46,688 nt of DNA from Kipferlia bialata (Eukaryota), in assembly GCA_003568945.1 (NCBI GenBank), contig BDIP01000017.1, positions 1 to 46,688 of the forward strand. The letters are read 5' to 3'. The notes beneath the pieces are model-generated. The model made no database searches, had not been told where the DNA came from, and saw nothing but the letters and a program-made list of their open reading frames with translations. The stretch's first letter is position 1. Each line of letters starts with the position of its first letter. A program made the position numbers and the translations under genes. Below, piece after piece: positions 1 through 35,189 of this stretch.

Positions 1-38
<38 letters not shown>
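1..38. repeat. poly-G homopolymer at window start, followed by (GA)n
   Basis: 38 consecutive G seen directly; probably a contig end or low-complexity intron tract. Confidence 0.9.
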
Positions 39-39
<1 letters not shown>

Positions 40-361
40 GAGAGAAAGAGAGAGAAGTTCACCACTGAATCCTTCTAGATATGGCTAGACTCCCGTGCTA
101 TGAAAGAGGTAATGATAGGTTGCGCGCATCTATACAAGAGAGGCGGTATAGTGGGATAGAGGGACACATCATTCTCTCCCTCTATCTCACTCTCAGAACA
201 CCATTCTCTACACCACAAACAATACACACACTACATGCACACATAAGTCCGACCAGCACATGTATGAGTAACCAAGAAAGAGTACATATAAGTGACATCA
301 GTAGTCACCATGATCCATATACTGGAGGTCACCACAGAGCGTATCCTCTACATATATCTAC

Positions 362-419
362 CTGGTGGATGTGCCCTCTGTAGCTCTGCATAGTAGGCAT
401 CCACGGCCTCCTCTGCCAT
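362..419 (-). CDS. probable first exon of a gene continuing off the window (MAEEAVDAYYAELQRAHPP...)
   Basis: ATG at 419 (minus), 58 nt of open frame, then a GTAGA donor; lies ~130 nt downstream of the stop of the giant gene. Product unknown. Confidence 0.4.
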
Positions 420-548
420 CCCTCGCTAATGTATCAGAGAGAGAGAGGTCATATTAATAGCTAATGACAGCCAAAGGTGATTGTCGGATATGATTCGGAT
501 TTTCAGAGTCATGTAGACTCTATTCGAGCCACTATTACACACATTTAT

Positions 549-3500
549 TCATATCCCTCTCTTGCCCTGGACAGGTGACAACCTTACTATGTCATGTGGT
601 GGTAAGGGGGCAGAGCGACCCGGAAGATTCACATGATTCCCACCTCCGCCTCCGCCTCTTATACTTGGTGGAGGTGGGGGACTGCGACGCACCATATGGC
701 CACTCTCCCCCTTGCTGCCTGGGTATGGGGTGAGGGCACTACCAGGAACTGCCTCTATGGGGGCATCATGATGCTTCTCAATGGGTGTCTGTGCTCTCTT
801 CTGTCTGCAGTATAGATACACCCCACCAATACACACAAGGACACCAAGGATAGCGGCACCTGCTACCAGTAGGAGTGGTATAGAGGGTGTATCACCACCA
901 GTACCGGGTGGCACAGGTACAGTAGGTGCCTCAGTGACTGATATCGATGAGACTGCCACCCCAGTGAGCCAAGCCAACCCGGCATTGGAGGCCGTAACAT
1001 GGAGTGTATCCACACCTAGGGGGAGGGAGACAGGGCATGCCTCTGCCTCCCTCTCAGTGTCGCTGTACACACTGCATGTGGACACAAGCTCCATGTAGGA
1101 TATGTCTCCACTCTTCCTGGCATACACACTGAGCGTGGTGTCACTGTCTGCTGACAGGGCAGTGGCGTCCAGGGTGTTAGGGCTCCACACATACTCTAGG
1201 TCGAAGGGCGTGTCCTCAGCCACAGAGACAGGCAGGGAGAGAGAGAGACTCGGGAGGGAGAGGGGTGTGTCCGTGAAGGTGACTGATCCTGAGACAGCGT
1301 AGCTAGAGGAGGTGGCGGTTGTATCTACATCCTTGGCCTGTGTCTGTGTATCAACTGCACCACACTCACCCTCTGCCTCTCTGACAGCCAGGGAGTACAC
1401 ACCACTGTAGTATACCACCCCAGCTGTGTCCCACTCATACACACCAGTGCAGGGTAGGCAGGACTCCAATACAACGGTGTCAGCACCAGTGCCTGAGGTG
1501 AGATAGCGGTGGATAGAAATTGGAGACATATAGTTACGTGTATATGTACTAGCACCGCTACCTGACACGAGGGCCAGGTCTATGTAGTCTGTGTCCAATG
1601 CTGATACAGCATACATGACGGTGACTGTCTCTGCTACAGGTAGCATAGACCCAACAGGGGGTGAGTACACATAGACTGGGGGATCACTCACACACGCAGT
1701 CTCCCACTGCTGTGTGCCATCCTCTAGGTAGAACACTACACACATGTCACCAGCTGTGACAGGTACGTTGAAGGAGAGAGAGAGAGAGTGGGTGGAGAGG
1801 GTCCCGTCCTTGTAAATAGAGACAGACACACACCCGTCAGGAAGGGATATCTCTGACCCACCCACTAGGCATGTACCAGTGGATGTGTCTAGGAGAGGGG
1901 TAGAGGTAGGGGCAGTACCAGAGAGGAGACTCACAGAGGTACTTGCACACACACCCTGAGTGGCAATGTCGTCATCTCCATCAAACACCACACACAGCCT
2001 GTACTCTCCCTCTGCAGGTGTGGCTGAAGGGTCTAGGGAGAGAGTGGCGTGCCCGTGGTAGGACCCACCCTCGGGTATAGAGAGAGAGACTGGGTGGAGG
2101 GTGTCGACAAACGATGAGGCGTCCCCAGTCTCAGTGAGTATAATAGGGTACAGTGCCGCCCCTGCCACCTCCCACTCTGTAAAGGGTATGGCAGAGGGAC
2201 GGGACTCCCACCACGCAACTTGGAGTGTACCCTCCTCCACATACACTGAGGAGGGGGCTGATACATACCGGAGTGCCCCTCCATAGGGCACAGAGACCTC
2301 TGATAGGAGAGAGTCCGTAGAGGCTGAGGGTGAGGCATGGCCGAAGGCACCCAGCAGCACCTCTCCCGCCGTCTCACATCTGACATAGGCTAGGGAGAGA
2401 GTGGTATCGGTGGGGTCAACAGCCACTGTCTGGCCCTCAGTGTAGCCAGAGAGAGAGTGCCTAGCTGCCAGGCAGAGGGTGTTACCAGAGGTGGCGGTGT
2501 CTATATCGTGCAGGGTGAGTGGTACAACCCCACACATCTGGACTGAGACACTGTCAATAGAGATGGGTGCTAGGGACTCAAGGGGCACGGAGACGGGGAG
2601 GGAGAGATATGCTGAGTCCGCCGCACCCTCTAGATACAGCACACTCTCTGCCCCTGCAAGTGGGGCCAGCCCTCCATACACCCATATACACCGGTAGGAC
2701 ATGGATGAAAGTGTGGCAAGGAGGGTGTCACTCTCGTCCTGGTCCACCAGAACCCACTCACATGGGACAGCCTCCCCCTCACCCTCTGCACCTGCCACCC
2801 TATGCATGAGGGCAGGCGGGGTGGCACTGTATCCATTGACTGTGGCAGTGAGGGTATCACCAGTGTGTATGGAGGCACTACCAGTGGGGAGGGTCATTCT
2901 CAGGGTTGGTCTTACATACTGCACAGAGACACTCTGATACAGACCAGAGGCCACCACTCTAACTGTCAGTGCCACAGATACCCCATCAGTCATGGGTGTG
3001 AAGACAGAGAGAGAGGCTGGGCTAATGTCAACCTCTCTGACACCGGATACAGTGGCAACCCTCGAGCTATTCACATACACGTCGTAGGTGCCAAACGCCC
3101 CATCTGCGCTATCCGTCTCCCATGAGAGTGTATGGGTGGCGCCATCGAGTAAGATACCAGTTGTAGATGTGTCTGTACCACTGTATAGAGTGTCCCCATC
3201 AAGTGTTACAGTAGTCACTACAGTTGATGTTGTGTCTGAGGCTGTGGGGGAGGGTATGTGCACGCTGTTGAGGTAGCTAGACACAGCCCGGTACTTGGGG
3301 GAGAGAGAGGCGTCCTGGCCGGTGTACTCAACCAGGCCCCAGCAGCCATACACGGAGCACATGCCTGGGGTCAGCCCATTGCATACATAGTATATAGCAT
3401 ATACATACATAGTATGTATATGCATCAGAACTCTATTCATACATACTTCATGTACTGGGAGCACATGCCTTGGGTGAGAGAGACCAGGAGGAGTATAGAT

Positions 3501-6500
3501 ATAGAGACATCAAAGTTCAGAGTATGGTAATGAATAACCTGAATGCCCATGTAAAGGAGGATCAGTAGGGACATATCAATGTACCTGTTGATGTGAAGTG
3601 CATCTGCAGTGATATCCCGTGGTCGTGGTTGGCCTCTAGTATCCCATAGTACACAGCCTCTAGCCTATCATCCTGAGTCATGGCCTCAAAGAGCTCTAGG
3701 GCACCGAGGGTGCGGTAGGTCTGGCCCTGTATTGTAAGACATATGTATATATATATATATATATTTGGCTATCATATCAAATTCAACACTACATACTGAT
3801 AGTGCGGTAAGTCTAACCCTGCATGGTAAGACAGAACCATAGGAGACACTGAATAAGACTTATACATACAGAGAGACACTTATGCTTATCGATATATTCC
3901 CTTAGACTAGAGATTCAGGTACACACCTCTATCATCGCCTGCTCTACAAATGCCGGTCCCCCCTCGTATGTGGCCAGGGCCATATCGTATGACAGGGCAA
4001 GGGTGTAGAAGGCATCGATGTCTGATAGGTACTCATCCTGCCACCCAGTCGACTGGCACTCAGCCATGGCAGAGTCTGGGGTGAGACACTAACAACTGTA
4101 TATAATTAATATATATATGTACTCATGTGTATATATATATATATATATATAAATATGTATATATATGTTCGTATATATACACTCAGCCATGGCAGAGTCT
4201 GGGGTTAGCTCCATATATACTATAAACATATATGTATATAAGGTCTGCCATGCGACAGAGTCTGTGGGGTTAGTATCTAATGACACTATATATCACAATG
4301 ACTATATATACAATACATACACCAACGGCCATGGTGCATGTGGGATGGGTTAGACTGCTGTATACCCATATGTACTCATATATGTATATAATACAAAAAA
4401 TATATATATCAGAAGTCCTATATATATATACTCGGCCATGGCAGAGTCTGGGGTTAGACTCCAACAACTGTGTATAATACAATACAAATATAAGAATATA
4501 TATATATATATATATTTAGATATACTGAGTCATGGCAGAGTCTGGGGTTAGACTAATACTAGTGACTCTACACAACACAATGTATATACATAGAAACACT
4601 TGCTCTACGCACCTATGTCCAGGTTGAGCAGTCTTGTGATCTCTGTGCTTAGACCCCCACAGTCCCAGTAGCCTGAAGTGTAAGGGCAGAGAAGGTGAAA
4701 GTAAGGGGTATACTTATAGGCATGCCCAAGAATATACAAACCCACCCCCTGTGGCCAGCATGTCTGCCAGTTCACCAAGGGATGCACTCATGGATGGGCC
4801 CTGGTAGGCAAGCATGTCGGTGGTGTATCTGGGGTTAAGAGTGTCTAATACAAGTATACATATATATATATATATATATATACATGAAAAGAGTAGGCTA
4901 GCATGTCGGTGATATCAGTGGTGTATCTGGAATGAGAGGCAGGTAGAGTATTCATACATACACGGATACTAATACCATATAATAATACAGTGTATGAACA
5001 TATCCACCCCATACCTCATCAACCACCCCGGCACCAGGTTGACGAGTCTAGAGGCAGAGTCACCCCACAGGTCAGAGAAGATGGACCAGACCTCGCTACA
5101 CCTGGGGTCAGTACATACCATATGTATATACATGATATATATACTCTATATGTAAACGATACGGAGGAGGCAGTTTACCCACCTCACTGCCGTGTATCTC
5201 TGCCTGGCACACATGCCAGTGCATGGTATATATATATATATAGTGTATAATAGTATATAGCAGACTGATGATACCTCACAGCCGTGTATCTCTGTCTGGC
5301 ACACATGTCTGTGCCATAGTAGCAGGTGGGGTCGGTGGTGTAGGACCCGTCCTCCTGGGGGTGGGTATCTAGAAGAGACACGCATATGTATATATACATA
5401 TATATAATATTACACGTATATATAGAATCTTGATGATATATGTACTCTATGTGGTGTAGGACCCGTCCTCCTGGGGGTGGGTCTTTAGACATGACTTATA
5501 AAGAGCTATCAACAATAGTCATATATACAGTAATCACATATACCCACATACCTGCACAACAGTGTCTACTAGCCCCAGTCTCACTCCCTCTGCCTCGGCC
5601 CATTCACCTAATGTTAGGTACTAATATACCATAATTAACAGAGGTCTATGAACGATTGTGTCAAAATGATAGGCACATAGTACATCGAGTAGTTGAACAG
5701 TAGAGTGCAACAGTATCTCAGTGTCCACTAGTACTGACCTGCTGCCGTGGAGTCATTCAAATACATACCCTCCTTGATTGACTATTTCATTACATATTTC
5801 ATATATGCATATACAATACTTACATATATACATATATATCATGTATCAATATCACACCTGCTGCCGTGGAGCCATTCCAGTTCTCATTGCCCACACCCTC
5901 GAGATACACCTGGGGTCAGAGGAATACAGAGGAGAAGATACTGATGATAATCAGATTGAAGAGAGAAACGTTCTGAACATTTGTCTAGAAATGGTTCTTA
6001 AGAGTAATCTACATATCTATATCCACCTTAACGTCAGGCCTGAGTCCATCCCTCAGCATCGTGGCTGCCCCTCTGATGTATGTGTCATCTGACGCATAGG
6101 GCAGAGTCAGCCACAGGTCAGCACCTAGGGGGTTGGAAAGTACCCTCATGATATGTATATCTATGCATTAATCTATGCAATTCTGTATACTACTATAAGT
6201 ATCTTACCATATGGTTCATTCTAATCATGAATATATGATTTTACATGTCTATCCACCTGTTCTGTTGATGAGGTCCACTATCAGCTCGAGGCTCATCCCA
6301 TATCTCTCGTCCCTCCAGTCTGTGGTGTGTCGGGTGGCCCAGGTGGACTGGGCCTGGGGTTAGACCACAAATAGATATAGAAAGATATAGAGAAATGATA
6401 ATTACTACAATTACAAAAATTATATATGTATACCATCATATATTTGTATATTTATCACCTCGTCTATGTATGCAAGTTCGTTAACTCCCAATATCAAAAC

Positions 6501-9500
6501 CACCTCAGAATATATATATATATACATATATTGATAATTAATACATATATATATATACCATCACTCAATACCTCATCAATGTATGCCAGCCAGTTCATGA
6601 CCCTGATGGCCCCGAACTGACCCATGTACTCCAGATAGGCAGGGTGCCAGGGCAGGATGTGGTACCTAACGATAAGTACTACATGTATATATATATACTA
6701 AGAATACATATATACTAAGAACTATATGCCTATATATCTACAGGATGAGATACCGTAAGCCTCTCACTCACTCAGGGTAAAGGAGTAAGTGATTCCATGC
6801 GGAAGAAAGCGAAGAAATGAGTTTGGAGTGTGAAAGGAACAAATTGAATAGAATACTAGTAGATACTAAACAGCATATATGAGTCGAACCTGTCCTCATA
6901 CCCCGCCATGACCACCCTGATGTTCCTCAATGGGTCATCGGGGTTGGTGCGGGTAATGGTCAGGAAGAGACCGTTGTCGTCATCCTGGGGGGGTGAGAGC
7001 CTTATAGGTATACACACGCACACAAACACCCACCCACATATGCATATATAGATCCTCCTGGGGACTGAGAGGGGGTAATGGGGGTACACATATATACACT
7101 ACATACAGGCATGTGTATATATATTTACACCTCCGATGCTGTGTACTGTATGGCCACCACCCCTGCCCTGTATGACAGGAGTGATGCATCCTCTCTCTAT
7201 ATATACATGTATTCATATAGGTATAGACATATATATATACACTCTATATATATAAACTATCATCTATGTCCTTACCTCTGATGCACTATACTGTATTGTA
7301 ACCACCCCTGCCCTGTATGAGAGGAGTGATGCATCCATGCCCACAGTCAGGGTGCCATCGCCATCGTACAGGATGGTGTACTGGCCTAGGCATGAGATAG
7401 AGATTGGTAGTACCTATACCAATCTTACAGTTATCAAGGGGATGGTGAACAGGCCTGGAGAGACGGATTATGAAGAGAGAGAGATTAATGTACTCATAAC
7501 AAGTACAATACATATGATCTACAAGCACACCGTCTTCAAAGGCCATGTGTGTGTCCCTCAGCATCAGCGTGCTGACCACAACACCCTCAGGGATGTAGGT
7601 GGGGTGGCCCTGGGGGGTGAGAAAGAAAGAAAGGTAGGTACGTAGTTACACGATACTTCAGTCGCGTAAGAACACAATGTACCCACCATTGTTGGGTGGT
7701 ATGTGACCCTCTCGTCCTCTGTGTCCCACTCATAGGTGGGGGAGAGGACCCACCTGTGGGTGAGAGGGTGTTAAAAGATGTATATATATAGACGGTACAT
7801 CATAGTGTGTGATAGGTGAGGGACAGGACCCACCAGGGGGGGTTAGGTAGGAGGGTATATATAGAACAAATATCCATATGTCAATATATATATATATATA
7901 TATACAATATCCCTCACTTGTTATCCTCCTGTGTCACCCACTGCCTGGCTGTCATGAACAGATCAGAGACAAACTGCCTGGCTGTCATGAACAGGTCGGA
8001 GAAGACAGACTCGGTGGACCAGTCGCTGATGCCTACAATTAGGTACAAGCCCCTGGTGACACATGTGGATATACGTATGTGTAGACACACAGGTCATACC
8101 TGACACGTTCATGCCCAGTCTCCTGATGATACAAGTATATACAAGTGTATACATGATCTAGAGATACTACATACAATATATAAGAGGATGTGTCTAATCG
8201 CATCTACCTGACACGTTCATGCCCAGTCTCCTGTCCCCCATGTTGGGTGCCCACTCACCACCGGCCAGACACCTGGGGGGTTAGGTATACATATACCTAC
8301 ATATTAATATATATATATATATATATATAACAGGTACTATACTATACTGACACCGATGTTGGGTGCCCAATCACCACCGGACAGACACCTGGGGTAATCG
8401 GTTAAACTCTGCAAAGATACAGGCTTACAATACATGTGAAACGATGACCATGTACCCCACCCACCTGTCCCCCCCATACCCTGCCCAGCAGACACATGCC
8501 CCATCTATGCAGTCCCCATAGACACACGAGGCAGAGCAGCCTGGGGTGATGGGGAGATAGTACTGCATACCAAATACAGAGCGGACTGAACACACATGTA
8601 TTACTGTATGTATATTGTGAATGGAGACACATACCTGCAAGACCCGGCCCACTGCACTCTGCCTCTCCCTCACAGTCCCACACACACTCATGCAAAGAGG
8701 CGTCATAGACATAGCCTGTGTCGCACACACATGATGAATTGTCGGCTGAGCACACGCCGTGGCCATTGCACCCACAGTCGATCTGGGGTGAGGATACATG
8801 TAGAGGTGTCAGGAGGACTCATTTACAACAGCGTGTACTAAGGCAAAGAGGGTATTTGCACACTTATGCTCGGTACCTCGCATGTGTCACCGGAGTACCC
8901 CTCATAACACTCACAGACCCCAGGGTCAGTACAGGTACCGTGATAGCCACACCTACCCTCACACACTGTGGGTGAGACACATCAATACATGCAAAATGTA
9001 TACATACTCTAAGCATACACACAGGAAGGGTGAGAATGGGACCAACAGAGAGAGTCACGTCTTCGTTCCTGCACAAACCTTATACCCACCCACATATATA
9101 TATGTATATATACATACGTATACCTGGCTAGTGGTACTTGTCACACTCGTATTCTGTGCCACAAGTACACACACATCTATATATACACAAATATGTATAT
9201 ACACAGCGTCTATATGCATATCTATGTTTCTACCTGGGTAGTAGCACGTGTCCCCCTCGTAGTCTGTGCCACAGGTACAGACCTCATGCACTAGGTACGG
9301 CTCATCTGATCGGGTAGAGAGGGTGATGATGGTATCATGGCACTCACAACAACAGTATACTGTAGTATCTGTATGTATATATGAGTGTGTATGTGTGTGT
9401 ACCTGTGGACGGGCGTGACTGCACACACTCCTCACACGAGTAGCTGCAGTAGTCATACACAATGTTCCTCAGTTCACAGCTTGTCACGCCCTCTGTGACG

Positions 9501-10472
9501 GTAACCGTGTACCCGTAGTCACATGCCACAGTCCCGTCCGTCAGACACTGTCCGTGTGTCACATCACTGTCAGCACAGGTAGGGGTAGGGGGTATGTACC
9601 CACTGTCAGAGAAGTATGTCTCGATGGCAGCCTCTTTGGATGAGACAGAGTGTGTGTCAGAGGCTGGGTGTGAGACATATGCAAATAGAATGGAGTAATA
9701 CAATATACGCATAGGAAAGGTGGTGCATGTCGATGTTAGAGAGAATGCTGTGTGGTTCCAGTACTTCCAAATATATACTATTCATATACAGAATTTGTAG
9801 CCACCTGTGTTCAAGGCCCATGGGAACCCACTTGTACCAAACTGCACTACCAGGTCTAGGTGGTCCTGAAGGAGGGATGTGTAGCTGGAGGTGGGGAATA
9901 CGATCCGTTGTAAGGGAAGAACAGAACCTAATAGTAGAGTATATGTCTATTACAGTACATGTCATGTCTATAGAGATCATATAGTATTGAAGGGTGGTGT
10001 ACCTGGGTGTGAGGGGGGATAGATGATAGGAGCCACTACAACGAAGACATGTAGTAAGTAGAGTGATACCTTAGCAGTACATCCCCCATCCTACTATCCC
10101 TGTGCAGTGTCTGTGCCACATCCTCATCAGTGTCATCGGCCATGGTGAAGGAGACAGCAGACTCATACCTATTGTGAGGGTAATATATATCAGTATCAGT
10201 ATCACCATATATACACGTTTATACATGGTGAAGGAGACAGCAGACTCATACCTTGGGTGAGGGTAATATGTATCAGCATCAGCATCACCATATATATACG
10301 TTTATACATGGTGAAGGAGACAGCAGACTCATAGCTGCAGAGTGAGTGGACAAATGTATGCTTCAGCTTAATCATACTTAGAGAGTGAGGGGGCAAAGTA
10401 ATACACATACCAACACACTTCACATTGAGGATAATAGTGCACACATATACACGTACGATATGAGCCTGGAAC

Positions 10473-10503
<31 letters not shown>

Positions 10504-13500
10504 ATATCCGTACGATATGAGCCTGGGTGTGTGCCCCGTGGCCTGTGCCATCTCATCCAGCAGAGCATCGTGCTTGGCCTGGGGTTAGCCATCTACTGTA
10601 TTCTATATACTAAATACTATATAGGATATACTATATATCTCATCATACCACTCATCTCTATGCTGCCCCCTAGATAGGGGGCTAGGGCCAGTGCATCAGT
10701 GTTCAGCCAGAATACATGGTCAGAGAGGCAGTAGTCACCAATCGTGTAGTCAGCTACGGTGACATCGCCAAACATCTGCAGTGAGAGGGAGGGAGACAAG
10801 AGGTGTCACTAGCTATCAATACCCGCACCCTAATCCTTCCCATACTACATTCACACATATACATATATATATATACATATATATATATGTGTGTGTGTGT
10901 GTGAGCCACACTGACGTCACCAAACATCTGCAGTGCGGGGGGGGGGGAGACAAGAGGTGTCTATATACGCATGCGCAAGTCCCAACCTTGTGATTTACCT
11001 CTAGATATATATATATATCCCTACCTTCTTCCACGGCCACACTGTCACTGCCTGACCCGCTGCCACCCTGACCAGTCTGTCTGTCTGTCTCTCTCTCTCT
11101 CAATATATATATGTGTGTACATATCTATATATATACCTTCCTCCAAGGCCACACAGTGACTGCCTGTCCCGCTGCCACTCTGACCAGTCTGTCTCTGCTG
11201 CCAAACACAGACTCGAAGATGGACCACACCTCAAGGCTGGGAGTAAGTATAATTACAGCGTGATCTCACTGGTTGGTATATGTACACCGGTATCATACCT
11301 TCTCATAGCATACCAGCACAGCCCCATCTGCTGCATGTCGTCTGAGAGCATCCACCCATGCACTGTCTCTATGGCCTCATCATCTATGAGGGGTGTACCG
11401 TCCACCCTGCTACCCTCAGAGGCAGCGTAGATGGCACCGGGGAAGTATCCTGGAGTTAGAGCCTCTGCTACGCGATGTGCATAGCATTACAAGATTTAGA
11501 CCTAAAGCTACGCGATGTGTGATTTACTACACGATACATTACCTGTCCCCCAGACCTCGTTGGACAGTTCAATGTACATAGAGACATCGGGCCTCAGGTT
11601 ATCACGCAGATATGTGGCAAACTGGGTGACATACCTAGGGTGAGAGAGAGTGAGGGGTCAACACCGTGAACAATAAGTGTATCTCCAAGGTGATTATGTC
11701 CAATAAATCAGACTACCCACCAGTCACTCCACTAGTGGTCTACATATACTAACGCTTATGCTTATAGGTTCCTATATATGTACATACTGTATTTACACAT
11801 ACATACTGTTACTACACCCACCCGTCACTCCACTTGTGGCCTATGTTGACCCAGGGGTCGGAGCCTAGGGTGTTGCAGATGGTCACAATCTAAAGGGGTC
11901 AGATATGTCATAGAGTTCATACATACGATACATATATATACATATATATATGATGCAGATGGTCAACATCTAAGGGGAAAGAGTACATGGGTCGGCATAT
12001 ACGCTGTAAAACTTCCTATCTATACCTGCTCCACGGGTATCCCCCCCTCTGTCCATGTGTAGAAGGTGTCTCTCTCTTCTCTCTGTCTCTCTCTCTCTCT
12101 CAATATGTATATGTATATCTATACCCATACCTGTTCCACGGGTATCCCCCCCTCTGTCCATGTGTAGAAGGTGTCCCTGGCCAGCCTTGTCTCCCAGTCA
12201 AGGGGCACTCCATCAGAGTCATAAGGAGTGGCGGCATCAACACCATCTACACCCTTTAGTTAGAGATATACAGGAGAGAGAGAGAGAGAGAGTCATGGGG
12301 GGTGGCATCGTCAACACCATCTGCATTTTGGTATTAGAGTAGAAGACAGCAGAGAGAGGGGTAGAGAGGGATAGTCATTAGAGTGACAGCATTCCCTCCA
12401 TCAAGTCCCTGGGTTGGCTGGGAGGCTAGGTTAAGAATTGGAGGTATTAATGGAGAGACCGTGTATATACTTTGTGACGCATACAAGCATCCCTACCTGC
12501 AGCGGGTCTGTCTCCACATCGTGGTTGGTGACCATCAGATCCATGAACCTGGGGGGGTTAGGAGGCATAGAAAGGGGATAAGAGAGGGCTCTAGCAGCTA
12601 CACTACTACGTCATACTAATCAGGTCCATGAACCTGGGGGGAAGAATAGGAGGGGTAGCATAGATACGTATGGATAATGATAAATCAAAATGTGATTAAC
12701 AATGTACACCATTACCTCCGCACCCTGTATCTACATGTATATATGTGTAATATGTATGTGTGTACAGTGGTGTAAGTGCATACCTCAGCACCCTGTATCT
12801 CCTGAGGTAGTCCAGCCACTGAGTGCTCATGGGCTGGGACACATAGAGACACTCGTCATGCTCACTGGGGTCAGGGAGAGTATGGTCCGGTAGAGTTTCT
12901 TCTATGTATGTATATATAGACATAGTATAGTAGAGATGCTCAAACTATACGCACGTATAAATCCAGACACTATTCTTGCTCCCTGGCATCAGAGGTAGAG
13001 AAAGGGATGATTGGGTGATGGATAGGTAGAGAGTGATATACATATCATCTGTTGTGGACATGGCAGAGACTACACCATACATGAGCAACTCAATGGCTTA
13101 CACACATATATGGGAACGCAGTAGACATATACAGCTACCAAACTAACCACACGCGTACAAAAATTCACACAGGGTTACCTGACCACCACAATGTCTCTGA
13201 TTGGATCCTCCGGGTCTGTTCTGTTGATGGATATGTGCAGTCCATTGTTGTAGTCGGTGGAGCAGGTCAGCTCAATCACTATCCTGCAGAGTGAGTGGCG
13301 GATTCATATATATATATATGCATGTAAATACAGTCACACCTATATCCATCTACATGTATATATCCCCCTTACCTTCCTGGCCTAGCCTCCACAGGTGCAT
13401 CGAAGTTGAAGTACACTTATACGTACATACTACATACTGTATATATATATGTATTATATATATACATCCCCCACCTTCCCGGTCTGGCTTCTACAGGTGC

Positions 13501-16500
13501 AGCATCAAAGTTGAAGTCCAGCACCCCCTGTCCCGAGTACAGTACCACATATCTACCATCTGGCACTGAGTGGCACTCAATGTCCCTGGTCAATAGGGTG
13601 TGGGCACACCTAGCGTCAGACTATGATGTATAGATATATATATGTGTGTGTGGGTATATATATATAGGCATATATATACTATGTGAGTAGTTCTCACTAG
13701 CACGATCTAACATGCACTCATCCCCTACCTATTTAGACACACACATAAAATATCATGTATATATACAACGTCGACCCCCCTACCTATTGACATGGGTGTA
13801 CAGCGGGTACCCATCGTCCGAGAGAGTGATCTCCCTATCGTTGGGGTTACCATCGGCGTCTAGACCATCCTCGTCATACCCGTCCAGAGTGTTCCTGAGG
13901 TGAGTATAGTGACATGTTACTCGGTTGTGTGACATGTTACACCACGTACCAGTTGTAGTCTGTGTGCCCGAGTGCCCCATAGAGCCACTGTCTGCTCCTG
14001 GGGTGAGGGTCATAGACATAGCAATAGAGGTGTACTGTACATATATATACTACTCATGACTGCGTTGTCTGCTCCTGAGGGTGAGGGGGTTGGATAGGAG
14101 TCATCATGTATATAGTGCGTCATATACTCTAATTCACAGTTAGTGCAATATGTGTGTATTATGTACAGGTACTATATGTATACACATCCTAGTCATGAGG
14201 TCCTTGTCACACTCTCCCTTTATCAAACTAATACTCCTTCTCTAGATACTGTACATACAATATATCTGAACTATTATATGTGTACCTAGTCATGAGGTCC
14301 CTTGTGACGCTCTCCCTCTGCCAGTCTGACACGCCACTCATGGACACACCCATCGAGGGGGGTCTGGGGGGTGAGGGTGGACAGAGAGAGATATATATAT
14401 AATGATTATATAGATATATATACGTGTGTCCGTATGAACGTACATACACCACCCATGGAGGGGGGTCTGGGGGTGGGGGTAGATGAGTATATACATTCAC
14501 GAATATACTTCGGCATATACGCCATGTAACAGGAAAATGTGAGGCGGACGTAATGATATAATGTATACATATCAGTATAATATTCCATACCTTGTGTCCC
14601 AGTCGCCTCTGTCCATCAGTGTGTCACAGGCATCACCTGAGTACCCGGCATGGCACAGACACAGACCTGGCGGGTGAGTGGTATCATAGACTACCCTAAA
14701 AGAGATACAGAGTGGAAAATCACCTAAGGACCATACCTGTATCCGTATCCACCACAGTGTGTCTCAGATCCAGAATAACAGGGAGGAGATACTAAACATA
14801 TAATACATATGCATATATATTAGTGCTATCCCACCTGTATCCATGTCCACCACCCCATACACACATAGAGTGTCAGATACAGATGGACAGGTAGGGGCAG
14901 TGGTGAAGACTAGAGGGGCACTCTCGGACTGGGGTAAAGGCACAAAGCGCGTGTGTATGAGAGAGAGAGGTAGAGATGCAATGATACAACAACAGTGAAT
15001 ATGAATATATATGTATATATATGTATAGACCTTCATACCTCACTTAGTGGCACACCCCCGTTGGCTGCAAAGTGACTGTATGCCTGGTATCTGGCAGAGG
15101 AGGAGAGGGTCTCCATGCTGTGGTGCTGGGCATCTGAGGTGAGGGACTACTATGCTATATACACGCCTGTTATATATATATATATAGAGAGAGAGAGAGT
15201 GGACAAACAAACGCCATACATAGACACATTCATACACTACTATACTGTGGTACGGGGCATCTGCAGTGAGGGGTCTATCATAGGCCATGAATAGATGTAC
15301 TATACTACAAACATTATGTGTGTGAATAGACCCTAACAACCCACCTATCAGCCCACAGTCCTTGTTGTACCACATGTCCTCCTCACACATGTTGGTGTGC
15401 TTGGTGAGGGCAGGGGCGATCACAGCACGGGAGCCCTGGGGGTTGAGGCATACATACGCACATGTGAATGTGCACGACATAGTGTGAAGTAGTTGACCAA
15501 TACACAGCTACGCATACCTGTGACCGCAGAGTGTTGAGCCAGTCGAGGGTGAGGTCAGTGACAAGCTGGTTACTCGATTCAGTGTCAGATTCACCCATCA
15601 GAATGCGGGTCATTCTACCTACAGGTGAGATAGCTCCCCATATCATTGTTCCATTAAGACATATTTGTGTTAGAAGCCACTTAGACCAGTTATACATACC
15701 CTCCAGTCTGCTCTCCCTCTGTGCGTCCAGTAGCTCATCAGCAGAGGGGTCATCGGACCTGGAGTACCTGAAGGTGAGTATGTGAGTAGGAGACAAACAC
15801 ATACATTCATACACCACATTCATGTTTACTGTCTCCTATACACGTACAGTACTAGTATGTAAGAAACCCCTATACCTGAACCGTGCCCCGTGTGTGGATG
15901 GCCTCAGGTGCATATACACATACAAATACATACATATACACATAAGAGTATGTATATAAACACATGTATATACCTGAACCTAGCCCCGTATGTGGATGGC
16001 CTCAGATGGATACCACCCAGGGTGGGCATGGTACGGAGGCCATAGTCAAGGGCCTGGGGTTGATACAGATACATAACATATACATCTATATACAGGTATA
16101 TACAAGTAGCACTAGGCCATAGTCATGCATCATTACTATTCTTATGACTAAAGAGGAGAGGCCATAGTCAAGGGCCTAGTTGGTAGAGAGATATACATTT
16201 GTCTTTGTATTTCAGAAGGGGTACGCACCACTTGTGCTAGCCCTGTGAAGTATGGGTCGTCTGATATGATGCCCCTGTCCACTGCATAGAGGAGGAGGGC
16301 AGGGTCATCCAGGGAGTCTGGGGGTTAGATGTATATACAAAAAACAATATACAATTTACATTTTCCAATATTCAATATTCAATAATCGATATTATCAAAT
16401 GTATATACATACATACATATATATACCTAGCAGGGCCAGTGTCTCTGAGTCACTGCTGTCATAGCTACCAGTGCCATAGGAGCCAAGGGAGCCTGGGGTC

Positions 16501-18048
16501 AGGAGAGCATGGGTGTCACTTTGGAATAGAGATATATACACCAATATGTCCCATATATGTCCTGTCACCTTTGTATGTGATGTGCTTGATGTATGTATAC
16601 TAAATATATATACTCTACACCAATGCCCACATATATACTCTTTCTATAGCACTAATATAATCAATAGAGGGACAGACACCCTCTCCACCTGTGTATGTGA
16701 TGTGCTTTCCGTAGTTTTACTCTACACCAATACATGTGAATCCTCTACGTTCAATCCATACTATACACATACATGGACACACCTGTGTATGTGATGTGCT
16801 TGACGTATGTATTGGCCAGGGCCAGGAAGGCATCATCCCTGGGGGTGAGGCATACGGTACAGGTAGTGTGAATACTTAGATGCTTGTAGTGAGAGACCAG
16901 TAAGCCCGCACCTATCCTTCATGTCCTGCAGATACAGGTCTAAGTGGTTGTCATACAGTGTGACCATGACCCACTCAGACACACTTGAAGGGGAGGCAGA
17001 GGAGGGGTAGGCGAGGTCCCACAGCTGGAATAGTAAGTACATATAACAGTACATATATATATATATGTATACATGTGTATATGTCATATCCTATACCTGT
17101 GCGGCAGACACGGTCTGTGTCAGGTGGGCACCAACAGCACCCATGTAGGCCTAGAGAGTGAGAAGAGACAGCAATAGATATAGATCTACACTATCGACTG
17201 TCATGACTAACCTTCTCTCCATACTGCAGGTATCTAGGCCGAACGGACCAGTCTCTATGGTGAGAGAGCAGCAATAGTATGTCGAGGTATACATACAGTC
17301 ACTAGTCTAAACCTAAACTGCTCTGCACACAGTGTGAAAGAGTCATCTGATATGGACACATATGTATCAATGAAAGAGTGTATGAACACAAATATACGAG
17401 TAATAATTGAACTCCTCACCATGTGACACAAGAGATAGGGACAAGTACAGACATAAATACGTGTGAAGATTACCTGAACTGCTCTGCGCACTGTGTGACA
17501 TAGCCATCGGTGGCATCGGCAGGCAGGGTGAGGGAGATGGAGAGGCCTGGGGTGGGGGGATGTAAGGAAAAGACTAGAGAGTAGACATGTAGAACACAAT
17601 ATGTTCATGTCATATGTCAACAACTTGGCGTTTCATAAAAGTGCACCTGTCTCCTCCGCCAGTCCCTTGTAGTACAGGTACGGCATGGACTCGTCAGACT
17701 GGGTGGTTAGAGTGTACACATACATGTGTAGAATAGAGTATACTTAGAGTGTCGCTATGTATACAGGTACGGCATGGACTCGTCAGACTGGGGTGACAAG
17801 GATACATATGGGTATATGGATATGAATGGGATTACAAATCTATAGATATGACAAATATATGACAATTCTAAAACTGTTATATTTCATATTATGTGTATAC
17901 CTCATACCCATATACACATAGATAGGTATGGATATGGATATGGATAGAGATACAAGGAAAGAATAGGATACCCACCTTCTAGTACAGCCTCTCTATCTAT
18001 ACCTATCTATACATATATGTACATACAACTCAGTAAATACTATATTAA

Positions 18049-18080
<32 letters not shown>

Positions 18081-20293
18081 GCCCCCACCTTGTAGTACAG
18101 CCTCTCCATTGGTCTGTCCTCCCATGCTCGTGTCTTGTCCCCACTGTTCCACTCATCCTCACTCAGGGTGCTGTCGGACTCCCACTGACATTAGAAGGAT
18201 AGTATATACACAAACCCCCCCACACACACGCATATGTATATATGAAGTGAAGACAAGTACAACATAGGGTGCTGTCGGACTCCACTGGAGTGGGTATGAG
18301 GACTCTTCATTGATGAGGTTAATACCCCGGGAACAGTATTCTTATGCCCATATGGCCAGACACAGCATCCCCCCTACCTCTGGGTGTATTGTGTCGAACG
18401 GCTGCACTGCTGCTATGTACTCTGGTGTGTAGAGGGCATCGGAGGGGAGGCCATCAGATTCAGGTACACACTTGGGGTGAGAATAGGGGTGTAGGGAGAG
18501 AGAGAGAGAGAGAGAGAGGCCATCGGACTCGGGTGCACACTAAGAGTGAAAATAGGGATGGAAAGAGAGAAGAACGGAGAAAGACAGACAGAGAGAGAGA
18601 GAAGGGTATGAGACTGAGTCACAGCCCATGGGGGAATGTGGTGAAGAGAGAGGGAGATTACGACTACGTAGTGGGAGAGAGACATGCTCCACCTGCAGAG
18701 AGTGCAGTGAGAGAGAGTATAAGGGTGTAGGATGAGAGAGAGAGAAAGATGTCATACCTTGAGGGAGTGCACTGGGTCTGACACGTCTGAGTGGGATATC
18801 AGGATGAGGGCATGGCTGGGGTCACAAAGAGAGAGAGAGAGAGAGAGAGAGGGAATATGAGGGTAGAGCTGGTTAGATATATAGATAGTCCAGTATATAT
18901 GTATATATATATACTGGGAGTATGGTACCTGTATGGCGTCTCTCTGTACGAGTACGAGGTGAATACATGGTCACCAATGGGCACAGGTATTACATCCAGT
19001 CTGATATGGTAGACCCCATCAGACTCAGAGACTAGCTCGACAGGTCCCCGGAAGTCAAGAGACCCTGTCCCACTGAATGTGCACACATACTCTGAGTAGG
19101 GGAGGGTGTTGGAGACTGCGACTGGGCCTCCATAGAGATAACCTTGAGTTATACAATAATACATAGATACAGAAAGAGAGAAAGAGGTATTGGAGAATCC
19201 GAGTCTCCATAGAAACACCCTAGAGAAAGAGCCTCTATTTCAGAGACAGAGAGAGAGAGAAAGCACATGTGGAGGAGAGGGGTAGTGGAAGAGAGAGAGA
19301 GAGAGAGAGAGAGAGGTATGTCGCACCCTCTGCCATTGCCGTTGGGTAGTGTGTGTATGCATCTGCGGCACACTCAGTCTCATCAGGGTGGTAGTCCACA
19401 TACACATTCTGGGGTGAGGGGGGACGTAGTGTTAGAATATATAGCATACAACATAATAATAAGACACTCCACTGTATCTATGTCTGGGCCCACATACACA
19501 CACACACACATTCTGGGGTTAAATGGGGGGGGGCATAGTGATAGTATACATGTCGATACAGATTGATGACACTCTAGACTGAGTGGGATCTGCGTGCAGT
19601 CCAAGGATATTATAGTTGGTAGGCACCCACCTGTCTTCCGTATGTGTCTGTATCACCCTCACTGGTGCTGTACTTGTACCAGGCAGTGGTCTCTAGGTGC
19701 AGAAGCAGATTCCTGAGGGGTGAGAGACCGTGGACAGAAAGACAGGGAGAGAGGGAAGGGATAGAGAAGTCAGTAGGAGAAAGAAAGAAAGGGGGGGGAG
19801 CAGATATTGTTTATGCTGACACACATAAGAATAGGGACTAGAGAGTGAGAGGGGAAGCGAGGTAGGTAGGGTATACAGGATTGGGGGGGGTTAGTAGGTG
19901 GGATAGTACTCTCTCACCTGAACACCCAGTCTGTGCCCCACATGTCTGGCTTGGCCACAGGTACACCGACCTAGGGGGTGAGGGGGGGGGGGGAGATGTG
20001 TGGGAACCTACAGGTAGATACTGATAGTCATGCTGTGTGTCACTGGATTAGACACTCTTCCTAAACAGACCTCCCTCGAGAGAATACAGTCAATACATAC
20101 AAAGACACCGCACAGTATCACAAAAGACAGGTCTGATAAGACAAAGAGAGAGAGAGAGAGAGAGAGAGAGGAGTAGTACCTCAGTCCGCGGCTCACAGGC
20201 ATCCCCCCTGAAGAATGCATTGGAGGGGATGTCATCACACACAGAGGCACCCAGACACAGGGATACAAGACACACTGACACAAGGATACGCAT
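549..20293 (-). CDS. giant multi-exon type-I membrane protein: signal peptide, 3x clan GH-A-like (bacterial 'cellulose-binding protein'-type) glycosidase domains, EGF-like spacers, stalk, TM, Pro-rich tail
   Basis: Exon 1 (20293-20180) encodes MRILVSVCLVSLCLGASVC (signal peptide; alternative ATG at 20299). Dozens of GT-AG exons splice into recurring motifs (GMNVSGISDWSTE, GQYTILYDGDG, TNPDDPLRNIRVV, RFMD/RVMNW, YIELSNEVW/YLEGVGNENW, YEGG). The terminal exon 3364-549 holds the TM (LLLVAGAAILGVLVCIGGVYLY) and PPPPP tail. A few internal exon boundaries remain unresolved. Confidence 0.8.
3280..8271 (-). other. GH-A-like domain copy 3 (acid/base NE and nucleophile YEGG retained)
   Basis: Spliced peptides RLGMNVSGISDWSTE, GLFLTITRTNPDDPLRNIRVV, WHPAYLEYMGQFGAIRVMNWL, DLWLTLPYASDDTYI, VYLEGVGNENWNG (exon 5858-5909), LATYEGGP (~3957-3975) and YGCWGLVEY. 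Confidence 0.78.
8460..9580 (-). other. tandem EGF-like/Cys-rich modules
   Basis: Exons encode GQCLTDGTVACDYGY, CTCGTDYEGDTC, CVCDTGYVYDASLHECV and CVYGDCIDGACVCWAGYGGDRC. Confidence 0.75.
9640..14365 (-). other. GH-A-like domain copy 2 (acid/base NE and nucleophile-position Glu retained)
   Basis: Spliced peptides MGVSMSGVSDWQRE, GRYVVLYSGQGVLDF, NRTDPEDPIRDIVV, VLRFMDLMVTN, DPWVNIGH, MYIELSNEVWG (exon 11543-11634), DALALAPY and RLISYESA. Confidence 0.75.
14628..15135 (-). other. Cys-rich/EGF-like linker between GH-like copies 1 and 2
   Basis: Exons encode PTCPSVSDTLCVYGVVD and CLCHAGYSGDACD (EGF C-x-C-x2-GY-x-G-x2-C). Confidence 0.65.
15360..19970 (-). other. GH-A-like domain copy 1 (degenerate; catalytic Glu motifs replaced)
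   Basis: Spliced peptides GVPVAKPDMWGTDWVFR, YVCTFSGTGSLDF, ISHSDVSDPVHSLK, SLTLPADATDGYVTQCAEQFR, AYMGAVGAHL and RTMPTLGG occur in the same order as in copies 2 and 3. Confidence 0.6.
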
Positions 20294-20299
20294 GCTCAT

Positions 20300-20463
20300 C
20301 CTATTGGGCGACACGAATGTCACCCAGGGTTGGAAGGGAGGAAGAGGGCAGATGATCAGACCCTGACTGGTTGATAGCATGAAACGTTCAGACGTTCTCT
20401 ATACTCAGAGACTCTGCTTCTCTAGTCTTCACACCGATCGTGAAGAAGGTCCACGTTATCAAT
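20300..20463. promoter_or_regulatory. compact divergent (putatively bidirectional) promoter region
   Basis: About 165 bp separate two signal-peptide-encoding start codons on opposite strands (20293/20299 minus; 20464 plus). No specific motif identified. Confidence 0.5.
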
Positions 20464-23400
20464 ATGTGGGTGGTCCTTGTATGTATGGCGGTGGTCGCTT
20501 GCATGCAGACCCCCTTCGGGCCTAGACCCGTCCCCAAAGACACATATGGGAGAGGTAACCGTCCCTCATTGTGAATACCATAGTCTATCGTGAGTCACGA
20601 TTCGTGACCAGCTTACCCCTTCACAGTCAGACGTAACACTGAAAATGCATTAGTTTAACCTACTGACTGATTCTATCATCTTCCAAGTTCGCATTCTGGG
20701 CTAATACTTAATGTGTGTGGCCTACACGCTCCACTGGAGTGTTCAGGTACTGACCCTCAGGTGTCCCAGCAGGTGCATTCACCTATCTCTCTGACCTTGT
20801 ACTGCCATCCTACCCTGGCCCCTATCCTGAGCTGGCACTCACAGAGGGCAGGGCATCGGTGTCAGGTGGGAGCGCATGCCTATTGAACAGTGCACTGCAT
20901 TGTATCTATGTACCAAGTCACACCCTCTCTTTCCTTCTCACCCTAGGCGATTGGGCCGCAGTATCAGGGGAAGGTTAGTCCAGGTGCAAAAGGGAGAGCG
21001 AATGCCTTTAAGGGACTGTGGTATATATTGAATGACTATTGCCAACTACACACACTCTCACTCTCCCTGTCTTTCGACATCTCATCCCCTAGGCATCAGT
21101 GACGGTGTGATAGAGGATATGGTCATTCTCTTCCACTCTGAGGCGTGCAGATCGGACCAGAGTCCTACCCTCCAGAGATGGGTGCCCGCTGACACTGCTC
21201 TACACGGTACCCTTCCCTGTATGTCAGGTACATACCCAGAGTATACATGTAGTCCGACATACTTGTCAAGGGAGTGCACTGCCACTGTACACTCTGGATT
21301 ATATACATATATGTGGGGCTCACCATGCCCAACACACTAGTAACAGATACTTACCCCAGGGGACTGGCTGGTGGTGTCTACTGAGACTGGGGTAGACACC
21401 TACATCATGACTGTCACTGGGCCTGAACTCCACTCATCCCTACCCGTGCCTCTCTCCCCCTCTGCGTGTGTTGTGTCCCTTGCGGTCTCTGGTTCTTACC
21501 TAGTTGTGGGCACCTCAGACCAAGAGGTCTACACCTACCTCTACTCTGCGGCCTCAGATACCTGGTCCCTCCAGGGAGACCTCACACCCATCTACCCTCC
21601 ACTCTCTGAGCTGAGTTGTCCAACCCGGTTTGGAGAGGTCCTTTCTCTCTATGTCTCAGACGATGCAGAGGGTAGTGAGGCAGCTAGGGTGGCAGTGACA
21701 GTCAGTGACGCCGGTTCTTACTACGTGTACCTCTTTGAACCGGCACAAGGGTTAGGGGACTCCACTGCCTGGGTACAATCAGGAGTCGTCATGCCTACCA
21801 CCTCGTCAGGGACAGGACCCGTAGGCACAGTGGGTACCGCTGTAGCAGTCTCCGGCGCCACCCTTGTCACAGCAGGTTGCCGCAGTTCCCTCGACTGTGT
21901 TATCCAGACATTTACACTCTGTCAGGAGAACAAGTACACAGACTCCATTGATGAGTGGTGTATAGAGAGCGAGATACCAACCGGGGCTGAGGTGTCATAT
22001 CTCAGCCTTGTTGATAACATACTGGCAGTTGGGTGTGTGGATGAGGCTGTATTGTACTCGGTGGACCCCTTGTCCCCCGTTGTCCTCTCACACTTCCACA
22101 GCAGTCTCTCAGTGACTTGTGTACCGCAGTTGGCTAGAGAGAGAGACACTGGGGAAGGAGGATCCCCAATGCACACCGCCATCATACAGGTGATTCCTAT
22201 ATTGTACTGATACACTCTGCTTGTCCTGCTGACCACCAGTGTGGGTCCCTTGCAGCAGTTGGAAGCATGAGTGTTACACTGACTGTCAACCGAATTCACT
22301 TCGGGACCTCTGTCGCAGCGGTGGAGTACCCTGGTTCAGACTATGACTTCTACCGTCAGTTGTCGTTCTGGGATGACTTCTCTCTCTACCCTCATGACTC
22401 ACAGGCAGTGTACGGCTCTGCGTATACCGTTGAATCCTCCAATTCTATGACTGTGTTAGTTGATACTGCGGCAGACCCAACTATTCTCTTCGGCGACCCC
22501 CACGACTCCATATCCATGTCATTCCATGTTAGCATGTACACAGATGTCTTGTGGTCACCTTTCCTGGCAACATGTGTCTCACTGCTACTATGTGCGTGCG
22601 TGTCTGTGTATGTTGCTTGTCGGTGGAGGGGTGTCTATAGGAATACCGTCTATGCCGCTTCTGAGTCTGAGTCTATAACTGTTGAGGGCAATCATGCAGC
22701 GATACTGGAGAGAGTATCACCCGGGAGCAGGGTTGTTTCTCAGGTCGTACTAACTGTGGCACTCTGTGCGGCAAAAGCGTGTAGACTCTGTGTCGACTTG
22801 TACGTGCTCTCACTCTTGTATCCGTTCGTCACATCACGGTTCCTCCCAAGTATAAGAGAGGACTTGCCTTTCCCACTGGACACTGTGTACGACATAGTGC
22901 GGCAGGCCCAAGATTACTCTCTAGAGTTCGCGCATCGTGCCCTCGCGGCCTGCCTCTATTACGAGGACCTAGCTGTCATTCTGTTCCACTTTGTTGTCCG
23001 GGGGTTTGCTTTTGCCATCAATCGTACCATTGTGAGGTGGGAGGCCACCTGTCACCCGTACGTACGCGGAGTTTTGGCAGTGGTCTACACCATTCTGAAC
23101 ATGGGTCTCTGTTGTAGCACCACCCACATTCTCTACACGATGTGGAACAGGCAGGTCTCTGGTGACATGTACCTAGTGACGCCAATGGGGGTGGCTACCC
23201 TAGGATGCTGTGTGATTATGTGCTGGATACTATATGACAAGGACACGTGGATTGGATACTTAGCCAAGAGCATTCAGCGCATTGGAGGCCTTGTCACCAG
23301 CTACATGAGATCCTTCCACAACCCAGTGCATTCATCGAGACCTGAATCTTCTCTCTCCATATTGTGCTTGAATGTAGTGCTTGCTCCCTTTGTAGCTCTA

Positions 23401-24408
23401 TACTACCTCGTTCTTGTTGTGGGGCTACTCATGGTTGTGCTTGTGAGTACTGCTGTGTCTCTTCTCAGCTGGGTGGCGGTTCCCGTCCTGGCAGCTGTGC
23501 CTCACCTCCTGAGGGCCATGGTGGGAGTGTACTCTCCCGCACAGGAACACATCCGTGTGCTTGGCCTATCATCTCAGACTCGGTCGCCAAGCACCACCGC
23601 TAGTGTCGTCCTAACAGGGGTTGTGTGTGTGGTGTGGCAGCTACTGAGTCTACCCTCAATGAGCCACAACAGGCTTGGTGAGGTCCTGGTAGTGCTTCTG
23701 AGTGCCACTGTTACCACCTGTGTGGTAGATGGGTATACGTTCGACCCCTTTGCCTCACTATTGCCCACCAAGGGGGTGGAATCAAGTACACCTGCCCTCA
23801 CTTGGGAGGACCGAGACAGCAAGGGTATCAATGGCGACTGGACTCAAGATGTGGTGTCAGGCTACTCATCCCTGCTCTCCCCTACTCCCGCGGCCTTGAG
23901 GCATGCGGAGCTCACTATGACCCTAAAGACCAATGCACTACTCTTCATACCCTATGTCGGCCCTACCTGTAAGGTTGTCGCGGACCGCCTGACATCGCCG
24001 CCTCTCCGGGTACCAGGATGCCCTTCAAGCAAGAGGCTATGGGTCAGCAACATACTTGCCACCCTCTGTGTGTTCTTCCTAGCCTACCAGATGGCCTTCC
24101 CCACCATCTCCAATGGCCAACTAACAGCCATGTGTGTAGTGTTCTGGGTGTTTGCTGCCCAGCAGGTGTGGGATGCGTATTGGCAGAGTGAGAGGGTGTT
24201 AGGACTGAGGTCAAAGGCCAGCGACTCACGGAACACCATGACAGGAGTGGAGAAGTACTCTTCCTTGGACCTGGAGGGGGTGCATGTCAGCGACAGAGAT
24301 GCCATGAGTAAGAAAGAAGCCGAGGCAGCTGAGACCATGGCGCTGCTGACCACCCAGACGGAGATGGCAGGGATTAACGGGTATGGAAACAGCGCCCTGT
24401 CTTGGTAA
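20464..24408 (+). CDS. membrane protein, ~1118 aa: signal peptide, beta-repeat (FG-GAP/propeller-like) ectodomain and ~11 TM helices
   Basis: Exons 20464-20554, 20761-20865, 20947-20973, 21093-21227, 21360-22189 and 22240-24408 join in phase with GT-AG. N-terminus is MWVVLVCMAVVAC. Ectodomain repeats include SLAVSGSYLVVG, RFGEVLSL, VGTAVAVSGATLVTAG and LSLVDNILAVG; the last exon has many hydrophobic segments. Confidence 0.75.
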
Positions 24409-24884
24409 TCGTTCGGAAGTGATCCCCAGTTCTGGGCCATGCTCTGAGCCTCAGACTCTGAGGGAGTGTTGGAGAATATATGACTATGAAAACTGTGTCC
24501 TTGGATTCATCTGTCTCACCGACCTTGTTTTACCTCCGGCGAAGAGCCGATGATCTTTCATTTACACTCTAGAACTCTGGCTTGCCCAACAAGATCGAGT
24601 CGCACCAGTGGTGCGGCACGGCATACATCACAAAGGGCCGATCATTGTAAATCTTGGCACATGACTATCTATTCAGATCATCTCACGTCAACCACGAAGG
24701 TGTTTGAGACAGTCACCCTACTCACAGCCGTTGATATAATCCACAGTACACCGAATTCAGGAATGGGCCAGATTCACTAGCCCCTTTCGAAGAAACTAAA
24801 ATAGCTGAATGATCGGTGTGGAAGATCGGTGAAGATGAACGTACGGACACCGCTCTTTCACCACCTAATTTTCAACTTTTATCA

Positions 24885-25164: not shown

Positions 25165-25220
<56 letters not shown>

Positions 25221-35141: not shown

Positions 35142-35189
<48 letters not shown>

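Follow-up and report, generated by a model that had tools for sequence, protein, structure and literature searches.

A large Kipferlia bialata gene predicted to encode a membrane-anchored glycosidase with one degenerate and two intact GH-A-like domains

The gene described here lies on the minus strand of a 46,688-nucleotide stretch of DNA from Kipferlia bialata, a free-living protist (contig BDIP01000017.1; the whole stretch is referred to as the window, and all coordinates are window positions 1..46,688). It spans 549..20299 and corresponds to the public model KIPB_000157 (GIQ79506.1). Its 63 exons in the window, together with 83 coding nucleotides that are absent from the assembly, encode a protein of about 2,811 amino acids. 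Based on a predicted fold and conserved residues, the reading we favor, with a probability of roughly 55%, is that this single spliced gene specifies a type-I membrane protein that acts as a glycosidase at the cell surface or in the food vacuole. Two of its three related domains (repeats 2 and 3) would be retaining hydrolases of the clan GH-A (glycoside hydrolase) type, while repeat 1 would grip the same polysaccharide.

The gene model was built by reading the minus strand in three frames. It starts with an ATG at 20299 (an alternative ATG is found at 20293), stops at 549-551, has GT-AG borders at 62 of 62 introns (median length 186 nt), and is open throughout apart from a single phase break at 10649/10578. 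One contig of 8,470 nt (record 8, run X2) covers the gene in spliced form from 538 to 20322. Run X2 was only guessed to be RNA, although the contig itself is spliced, and its sample is the same as that of the DNA run, so the contig is informative about splicing rather than expression level. Once two differences are allowed for (a gain of 83 nt and a loss of 33 nt), its offsets equal those of the model at 13 of 13 anchor points, and ten CT..AC joints are individually visible across 7600-11700. A 69-nt intron (1493-1561) sits within an apparently single open reading frame (ORF) of 986 aa. A preliminary description made from the DNA alone had proposed one large multi-domain gene split by dozens of introns, and this observation stands. 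The possibility of several independent genes is ruled out, since the spliced contig covers all three repeats. The 62 introns over 19.7 kb amount to about 3 per kb, which is ordinary for Kipferlia given the genome-wide density of 2.45 per kb (PMC5874029).

The sole phase break, in repeat 2 (10579..10648), is most simply accounted for by an assembly collapse. Exactly at this point, the spliced contig holds 83 coding nucleotides (contig positions 5145-5227) where the window has none, and their inclusion repairs the break; the spliced joint runs from 10648 to 10546, and the DNA contigs diverge at 10592, a loose end. A frameshift or pseudogene at 10649-10578 was ruled out, as the contig adds the 83 bases and the Chilomastix orthologue has a segment of matching length. 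The second difference concerns the exon at 7918..8032, which contains a 33-nt in-frame tandem duplication that is missing from the spliced contig and is either an assembly artefact or an allele. The NCBI model omits the exon 10775-10649 and has a different C-terminus, and the spliced contig supports neither feature. The public Kipferlia model is corrected here at the omitted exon, the C-terminus, and the assembly gap.

All elements of the encoded protein follow one another along the minus strand. A predicted signal peptide (20237..20299; hydropathy 2.13) precedes repeat 1 (aa 38-590; 15048..20188), a single EGF-like spacer (14620..14889), repeat 2 (aa 651-1205; 9596..14362), a Cys-rich cluster of teneurin-like EGF modules (8266..9595), and repeat 3 (aa 1411-1945; 3252..8235). 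These are followed by a Ser/Thr/Val-rich stalk of about 770 aa that holds the 69-nt intron (882..3251), a single transmembrane helix with basic residues next to it (810..875; hydropathy 2.69), and an 86-aa Pro/Gly-rich cytoplasmic tail with the stop codon (549..809), which is uninterrupted in the spliced contig (538-1491). Repeats 2 and 3 share 31% identity (E 4e-39), and repeat 1 is 22-24% identical to them. Searches returned only EGF matches in Pfam, nothing in NCBIfam, and only EGF proteins by sequence in PDB. Teneurins are defined by an NHL/YD shell and tenascins by Fn3/fibrinogen domains; here only EGF modules were matched, with EGF_TEN reaching 40 bits against a Pfam cut-off of 65. The stalk matched no family, gave Atlas scores of at most 0.84 with low recognition, and showed at most weak similarity, with no significant match, among the relatives. 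The three repeats, EGF spacers, stalk, and transmembrane helix of the preliminary description are thus all present, and the type-I topology is supported. Its "signalling-type tail" is not: the 86-aa tail has nothing beyond proline runs, with no Pfam match, no signalling domain, and neither the catalytic nor the conserved docking domain of a signalling receptor. Moreover, tails are unconserved among 24 relatives, and some relatives end in a manner resembling a glycosylphosphatidylinositol (GPI) anchor signal.

The AlphaFold model of repeat 3, computed from 84 alignment rows, has a predicted local distance difference test score (pLDDT) of 87 and a predicted template modelling score (pTM) of 0.89. 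It contains eight barrel strands with a beta-sandwich of about 100 aa inserted after beta-1, and ends at the last barrel helix. Glu272 lies just after the strand 264-267 (beta-4), and Glu440 lies within the strand 435-443 (beta-7). The best structural match in VIA was GH51 1pz2 (Z 22.9, root-mean-square deviation (rmsd) 3.6, 293 residues aligned), followed by GH51 2vrk (Z 22.2), GH51 3ug3 (Z 21.6), and the GH79 heparanase 5bwi (Z 21.0). The 50 structural matches listed were overwhelmingly glycoside hydrolase barrels, and Foldseek agrees. This predicted (beta/alpha)8 barrel, with Glu residues at beta-4 and beta-7, agrees with the GH-A/GH51-like barrel that had been proposed, and the absence of a TIM barrel, which would have spoken against that proposal, was not observed for repeat 3 with AlphaFold, Foldseek, or VIA. 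The orthologous repeat 1 of Chilomastix was also predicted to be a GH-A barrel (pLDDT 73, best Z 17.8, rmsd 3.6, 282 aligned). The GH51 matches cover the barrel alone (residues ~20-385). By sequence, 12- and 84-row profiles found no GH51 chain or any other glycosidase in PDB at E up to 10, a search of 12 members with E up to 1 gave no match to the GH51 Pfam families, and hhalign gave a probability of 0.4% against a bacterial GH51-type protein with Alpha-L-AF_C. This C-terminal GH51 beta-sandwich has neither a Pfam match nor a counterpart in the repeat 3 model. GH79 lies within 2 Z units of GH51 and likewise had no sequence match in the PDB profile searches. On the predicted structure, the domain would work like a clan GH-A enzyme by fold and residues, and is separated from GH51 by its sequence and by its missing C-terminal domain.

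Enzymes of clan GH-A employ a retaining double displacement with two Glu residues. In repeat 3, the corresponding residues are found in GNENW (Glu codon 5885-5883) and TYEGG (3965-3963), and the repeat also contains RVMNW. In repeat 2 they are found, by alignment, in SNEVW (11558-11556) and SYESA (10164-10162). In repeat 1, the acid/base position aligns with a Lys (17214-17212) and the nucleophile position with a Leu (16020-16018). The NE and YEGG motifs, read in the preliminary description as the likely catalytic pair, are both present in repeat 3; repeat 2 has SNEVW but YESA rather than YEGG, and repeat 1 has neither. Both Glu residues are invariant in 84 of 84 alignment rows. They are jointly present in 138 of 143 domains from proteins without EGF linkers, in 22 of 22 second repeats, and in all 20 full-length third repeats, a count that leaves out two truncated ones. 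By contrast, no first repeat has both (0/22), with the first Glu alone in 1/22 and the second alone in 3/22, figures that depend on the alignment. Kipferlia repeats 2 and 3 retain 31 and 38, respectively, of 45 highly conserved positions, and a hidden Markov model (HMM) built from bacterial sequences only scores repeat 3 at 350 bits, repeat 2 at 267, and repeat 1 at 33. These sequence comparisons suggest that repeats 2 and 3 are likely active and that the outermost repeat 1 is likely dead.

The domain belongs to a large family. A search with repeat 3 returned 11 relatives; two of them came from scallops, and others were bacterial-type proteins that also carried PKD, Ig, or dockerin modules. 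Against a 50%-identity library, a profile search matched 12,850 clusters when E was allowed to reach 0.001 and 6,417 at the stricter limit of 1e-30; the best 150 matches were inspected. When Atlas was queried with the bacterial relative P0002, the three best clusters scored 0.98-0.99, were 96-100% bacterial, shared no common Pfam domain, and carried the automatic name "cellulose-binding protein", as expected from the earlier assignment to an uncharacterized, mainly bacterial family of that name. Repeats 2 and 3 are homologous to the bacterial family over the full length of the domain and include its invariant residues. With neither a Pfam nor an NCBIfam model, the family appears to be unclassified. 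Bacterial carriers with assigned taxa are mainly Planctomycetota, Armatimonadota, and Verrucomicrobiota, a distribution biased by the query, and 26 records place the family on plasmids of Alphaproteobacteria, with one plasmid match falling in a gene annotated as GH16. The extra modules of relatives without EGF linkers include PA14, the carbohydrate-binding modules (CBMs) CBM9 and CBM4_9, NPCBM, LamG, dockerin, RTX, and type IX secretion system (T9SS) modules, as well as one GH9 fusion. One bacterial genome (G004, L019) has four family matches, two of them on a single contig.

Three repeats with EGF linkers were found in 22 of the 172 domain-bearing sequences examined, counting Kipferlia once and dropping one near-duplicate, so that there are 21 other proteins with this layout. 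Chilomastix cuspidata (P0054) matches with 40% identity over 1,881 aa and Bicosoecida sp. CB-2014 with 30% over 1,438, each with three repeats. P0021 aligns with the Kipferlia model as one colinear segment of 1,808 residues (27%), with the linker cysteines in register. Judging from their signal peptides, EGF modules, and anchors, the 19 further three-repeat proteins are probably eukaryotic as well. Three mollusc proteins, P0003, P0004, and P0065 (Pecten, Mizuhopecten, and Patella), consist of the EGF cluster plus a repeat 3 with both Glu residues, and the cysteines of the Kipferlia cluster are in register with those of the relatives' linker and of the scallop protein N-terminus, cysteine for cysteine. 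These mollusc proteins are annotated as "uncharacterized", "Tenascin-X", or "EGF-like" and are likely overlooked secreted glycosidases. Among 24 EGF-type proteins, 13 have a transmembrane helix and tail, four have a GPI-like hydrophobic C-terminus, and seven have no clear anchor, some of the latter perhaps being incomplete sequences. The Chilomastix tail is 727 aa long, the tail of P0028 carries two WW domains, and the bicosoecid-type P0031 has a PA14 domain inside repeat 1 plus TSP1 repeats. No account of the protein or its layout was found in the open-access literature, with CAZy and subscription journals lying outside this scope.

Phylogenetic analysis was carried out with FastTree on 196 domains, with a fast IQ-TREE run on 84, and with a careful IQ-TREE run (LG+G4) on 41, from which first repeats and long branches were left out. 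The EGF-type domains group together in all three trees (0.908; Shimodaira-Hasegawa-like approximate likelihood ratio test 99.4; 91/99), with three non-EGF rows falling within the group beside the mollusc proteins, and no bacterial donor was resolved. In the 41-domain tree, the second repeats form one starred clade (100/99; 12 rows). HMMs specific for repeat position placed the Kipferlia and Chilomastix repeats correctly in 6 of 6 cases and assigned the mollusc domains to repeat 3 in 3 of 3. They were trained without Kipferlia and Chilomastix, although unrecognized fornicates may be in the training set, and were correct in 19 of 20 leave-one-out trials. The colinear three-repeat module with EGF linkers in other proteins indicates that the triplication and receptor packaging likely predate Kipferlia, and one old assembly is much the simplest account of the position-specific HMMs, the common linkers, and the common dead first repeat. 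The domain would have come from bacteria once, early, and would have been triplicated before the fornicate/bicosoecid split, unless the finished gene moved between eukaryotes. A recent transfer from bacteria specific to fornicates or to Kipferlia, followed by local triplication, would fit a family that is mostly bacterial where taxa are assigned, and an approximately unbiased (AU) test did not reject grouping repeats 2 and 3 of Kipferlia and Chilomastix in a fornicate-only clade (log-likelihood difference 25.7, p=0.142). We nevertheless regard it as very improbable: proteins from beyond the fornicates have colinear triplets that match in both the EGF linkers and the dead first repeat, repeats are classified by position and second repeats form their own clade, and the gene has 62 introns with few positions common to its repeats (0, 2, and 1 for the three pairs, counts that have no control). 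A recent Kipferlia-specific transfer is thus unlikely, and the lineage-specific horizontal acquisition proposed in the preliminary description does not hold as worded, the module being colinear in P0021, Chilomastix, and the bicosoecid.

How might such a protein work? In the glycosidase reading, the stalk would lift the head off the membrane and the EGF modules would space the barrels. A long glycan would be held by the outermost dead barrel and cut by the two active ones, whose active sites perhaps differ somewhat. As in other enzymes of clan GH-A, the Glu after beta-4 would serve as acid/base and the Glu in beta-7 as nucleophile in a double displacement. Triplet carriers with assigned taxa are flagellates that eat bacteria or live in the gut, and the animals among the carriers are molluscs that graze or filter-feed. 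These feeding habits, together with the CBM-bearing secreted relatives in bacteria, make capsular or other extracellular polysaccharide from prey or biofilm the leading candidate substrate, although at somewhat less than even odds. More tentatively, the protein may represent a very old eukaryotic feeding receptor-enzyme that predates the split of fornicates, stramenopiles, and animals and joins a pseudoenzyme barrel to two active ones from a new GH-A family. With it, phagotrophs would recognize a widespread polysaccharide of bacteria or algae and strip it away, and molluscs would have kept a secreted digestive enzyme mislabelled "tenascin".

The receptor-like layout and conserved dead first repeat could instead indicate a lectin for prey capture or adhesion. 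Its three barrels would then chiefly bind glycan, hydrolyzing it slowly or not at all, and the protein would tether bacteria or substrate to be phagocytosed. A coupling to actin through the proline-rich tail would be accommodated by the proline runs of the Kipferlia and Chilomastix tails and by the WW domains of P0028, and the automatic family name is "cellulose-binding". However, 42 of the 42 second and third repeats scored retain both Glu residues, a conservation that binding alone would not require, the tails are unconserved, 4 of 24 relatives are GPI-like without a tail, and the mollusc forms are secreted, so we consider a pure lectin unlikely. Equally doubtful is an enzyme that acts on the cell's own glycans, in remodelling or transglycosylation of a glycocalyx or cyst wall, in the manner of GH79 heparanases or of GH72 transglucanases, which are GPI-anchored. 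Heparanases and hyaluronidase stand just behind GH51 in structural similarity to repeat 3 (Z 21.0, 19.9, and 19.0), and conservation over distant eukaryotes, with GPI-like ends in some relatives, fits a housekeeping role. On the other hand, the feeding habits of the carriers point outward, and the bacterial relatives resemble secreted degradative enzymes with CBMs.

Several observations weigh against the favored glycosidase reading and the old assembly that goes with it. Identity to the GH51 and GH79 structures is only 9-12%, and a common fold shows no function. No family member with a measured activity was found in Pfam, NCBIfam, PDB, or the open-access literature. Bacterial loci showed no conserved operon (16 of 80 loci, 106 ORFs), and neighbors from glycosidase families at 5 of 16 loci and sulfatases at 2 of 16 occur in phyla where genes of these kinds abound in any case. 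Within the protein, repeat 2 is without some conserved positions near beta-8, and the barrel assignment for repeat 1 rests on the orthologous Chilomastix model. In addition to the AU result above, the third-repeat clade is weak (77/74, 41-domain IQ-TREE). Finally, only one three-repeat protein outside fornicates has an assigned taxon, that being a transcriptome record and a possible contaminant, and eukaryotic origin is deduced for the remaining 19.

Other features of the window were also noted. Within the gene, a decayed copy of the upstream exon end or the downstream exon start was detected in 27 of 62 introns, and 0 of 2,480 mismatched control pairs reached the same score. These introns average 247 nt versus 134 for the others, and several lie within DNA contigs identical to the window, letter for letter. 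The copies may be traces of a tendency of the Kipferlia genome to duplicate sequence locally across splice sites. A second multi-exon gene at ~35870-41900 (minus strand) has repeated modules with a Cys-flanked strand motif ending in "CSYTA"-like words, and one transmembrane helix with a Cys-rich juxtamembrane stretch near 36260-36200. It looks CUB-like, and its single exons gave no meaningful Pfam match. Two long overlapping ORFs of 288 and 756 aa at 21344-24408 (plus strand), the second with many hydrophobic stretches, matched no Pfam family.

The analysis connects a large uncharacterized family of 12,850 clusters with the GH-A fold and points to specific predicted catalytic residues, which makes a direct assay possible; such an assay would put a name to the activity of a family of over 10,000 clusters. 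A fixed dead-active-active order of domains is maintained at the surface of distantly related eukaryotes. It may be a means by which bacterivorous protists seize and cleave the glycans of prey or biofilm, a process with few known molecular players. The analysis also marks some mollusc genes as mis-annotated and as likely endogenous glycosidases.

The closest known systems differ from the Kipferlia protein in instructive ways. GH51 alpha-L-arabinofuranosidases and GH79 enzymes share with it the predicted (beta/alpha)8 barrel, the NE after beta-4, and the Glu in beta-7, with Z 21-23 over ~290 residues. GH51, however, has RWPGG where the present domain has RFMDW, and has a C-terminal sandwich where repeat 3 has its beta-sandwich of ~100 aa after beta-1. 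The GH51_3 endoglucanases, such as Fibrobacter Fisuc_3111 with CBM11/CBM30 and members bearing CBM2, have the GH-A fold predicted for it. The "cellulose-binding" label may derive from Fibrobacter CBP1/endoglucanase F (GH51_3); four candidates of ~1,050 aa had other domains or none. Reference titles attach the historic name "cellulose-binding protein" to GH51_3-type proteins (PMC3079729), and a further source links GH51_3 by BLAST to other GH51 subfamilies and describes most members as having CBM2, CBM11, or CBM30 (PMC10461819). The comparison of the domain with GH51 and GH51_3 also drew on PMC13386854, PMC11653725, and PMC3377646. No CBM_2 or CBM_11 Pfam match was found among the scanned top relatives, a biased sample of the 12,850-cluster family.

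The bacterial "cellulose-binding protein family" has the same domain (24-33% identity to repeat 3) and the same invariant Glu, Trp, Arg, and Tyr. Its members are usually single secreted domains with CBM, Ig, RTX, dockerin, or T9SS modules, and are without the EGF linkers, conserved dead copy, or transmembrane stalk of the Kipferlia protein. The mollusc proteins resemble it in the EGF cluster and repeat 3, at 31-32% identity over ~670 aa, but are secreted, with one catalytic domain, no transmembrane helix, and an unrelated C-terminal region. Clan GH-A also includes family GH5_5. In the phagotrophic flagellate Orciraptor agilis, a GH5_5 endocellulase is described at the prey contact zone, with no triplication with a dead copy mentioned in the abstract (PMC9721047). 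With its different family and its known substrate and activity, this enzyme is a functional analogue only. Set beside these systems, the fold and mechanism class predicted for the Kipferlia protein are already known, and what is new is the three-repeat layout with its fixed dead first repeat.

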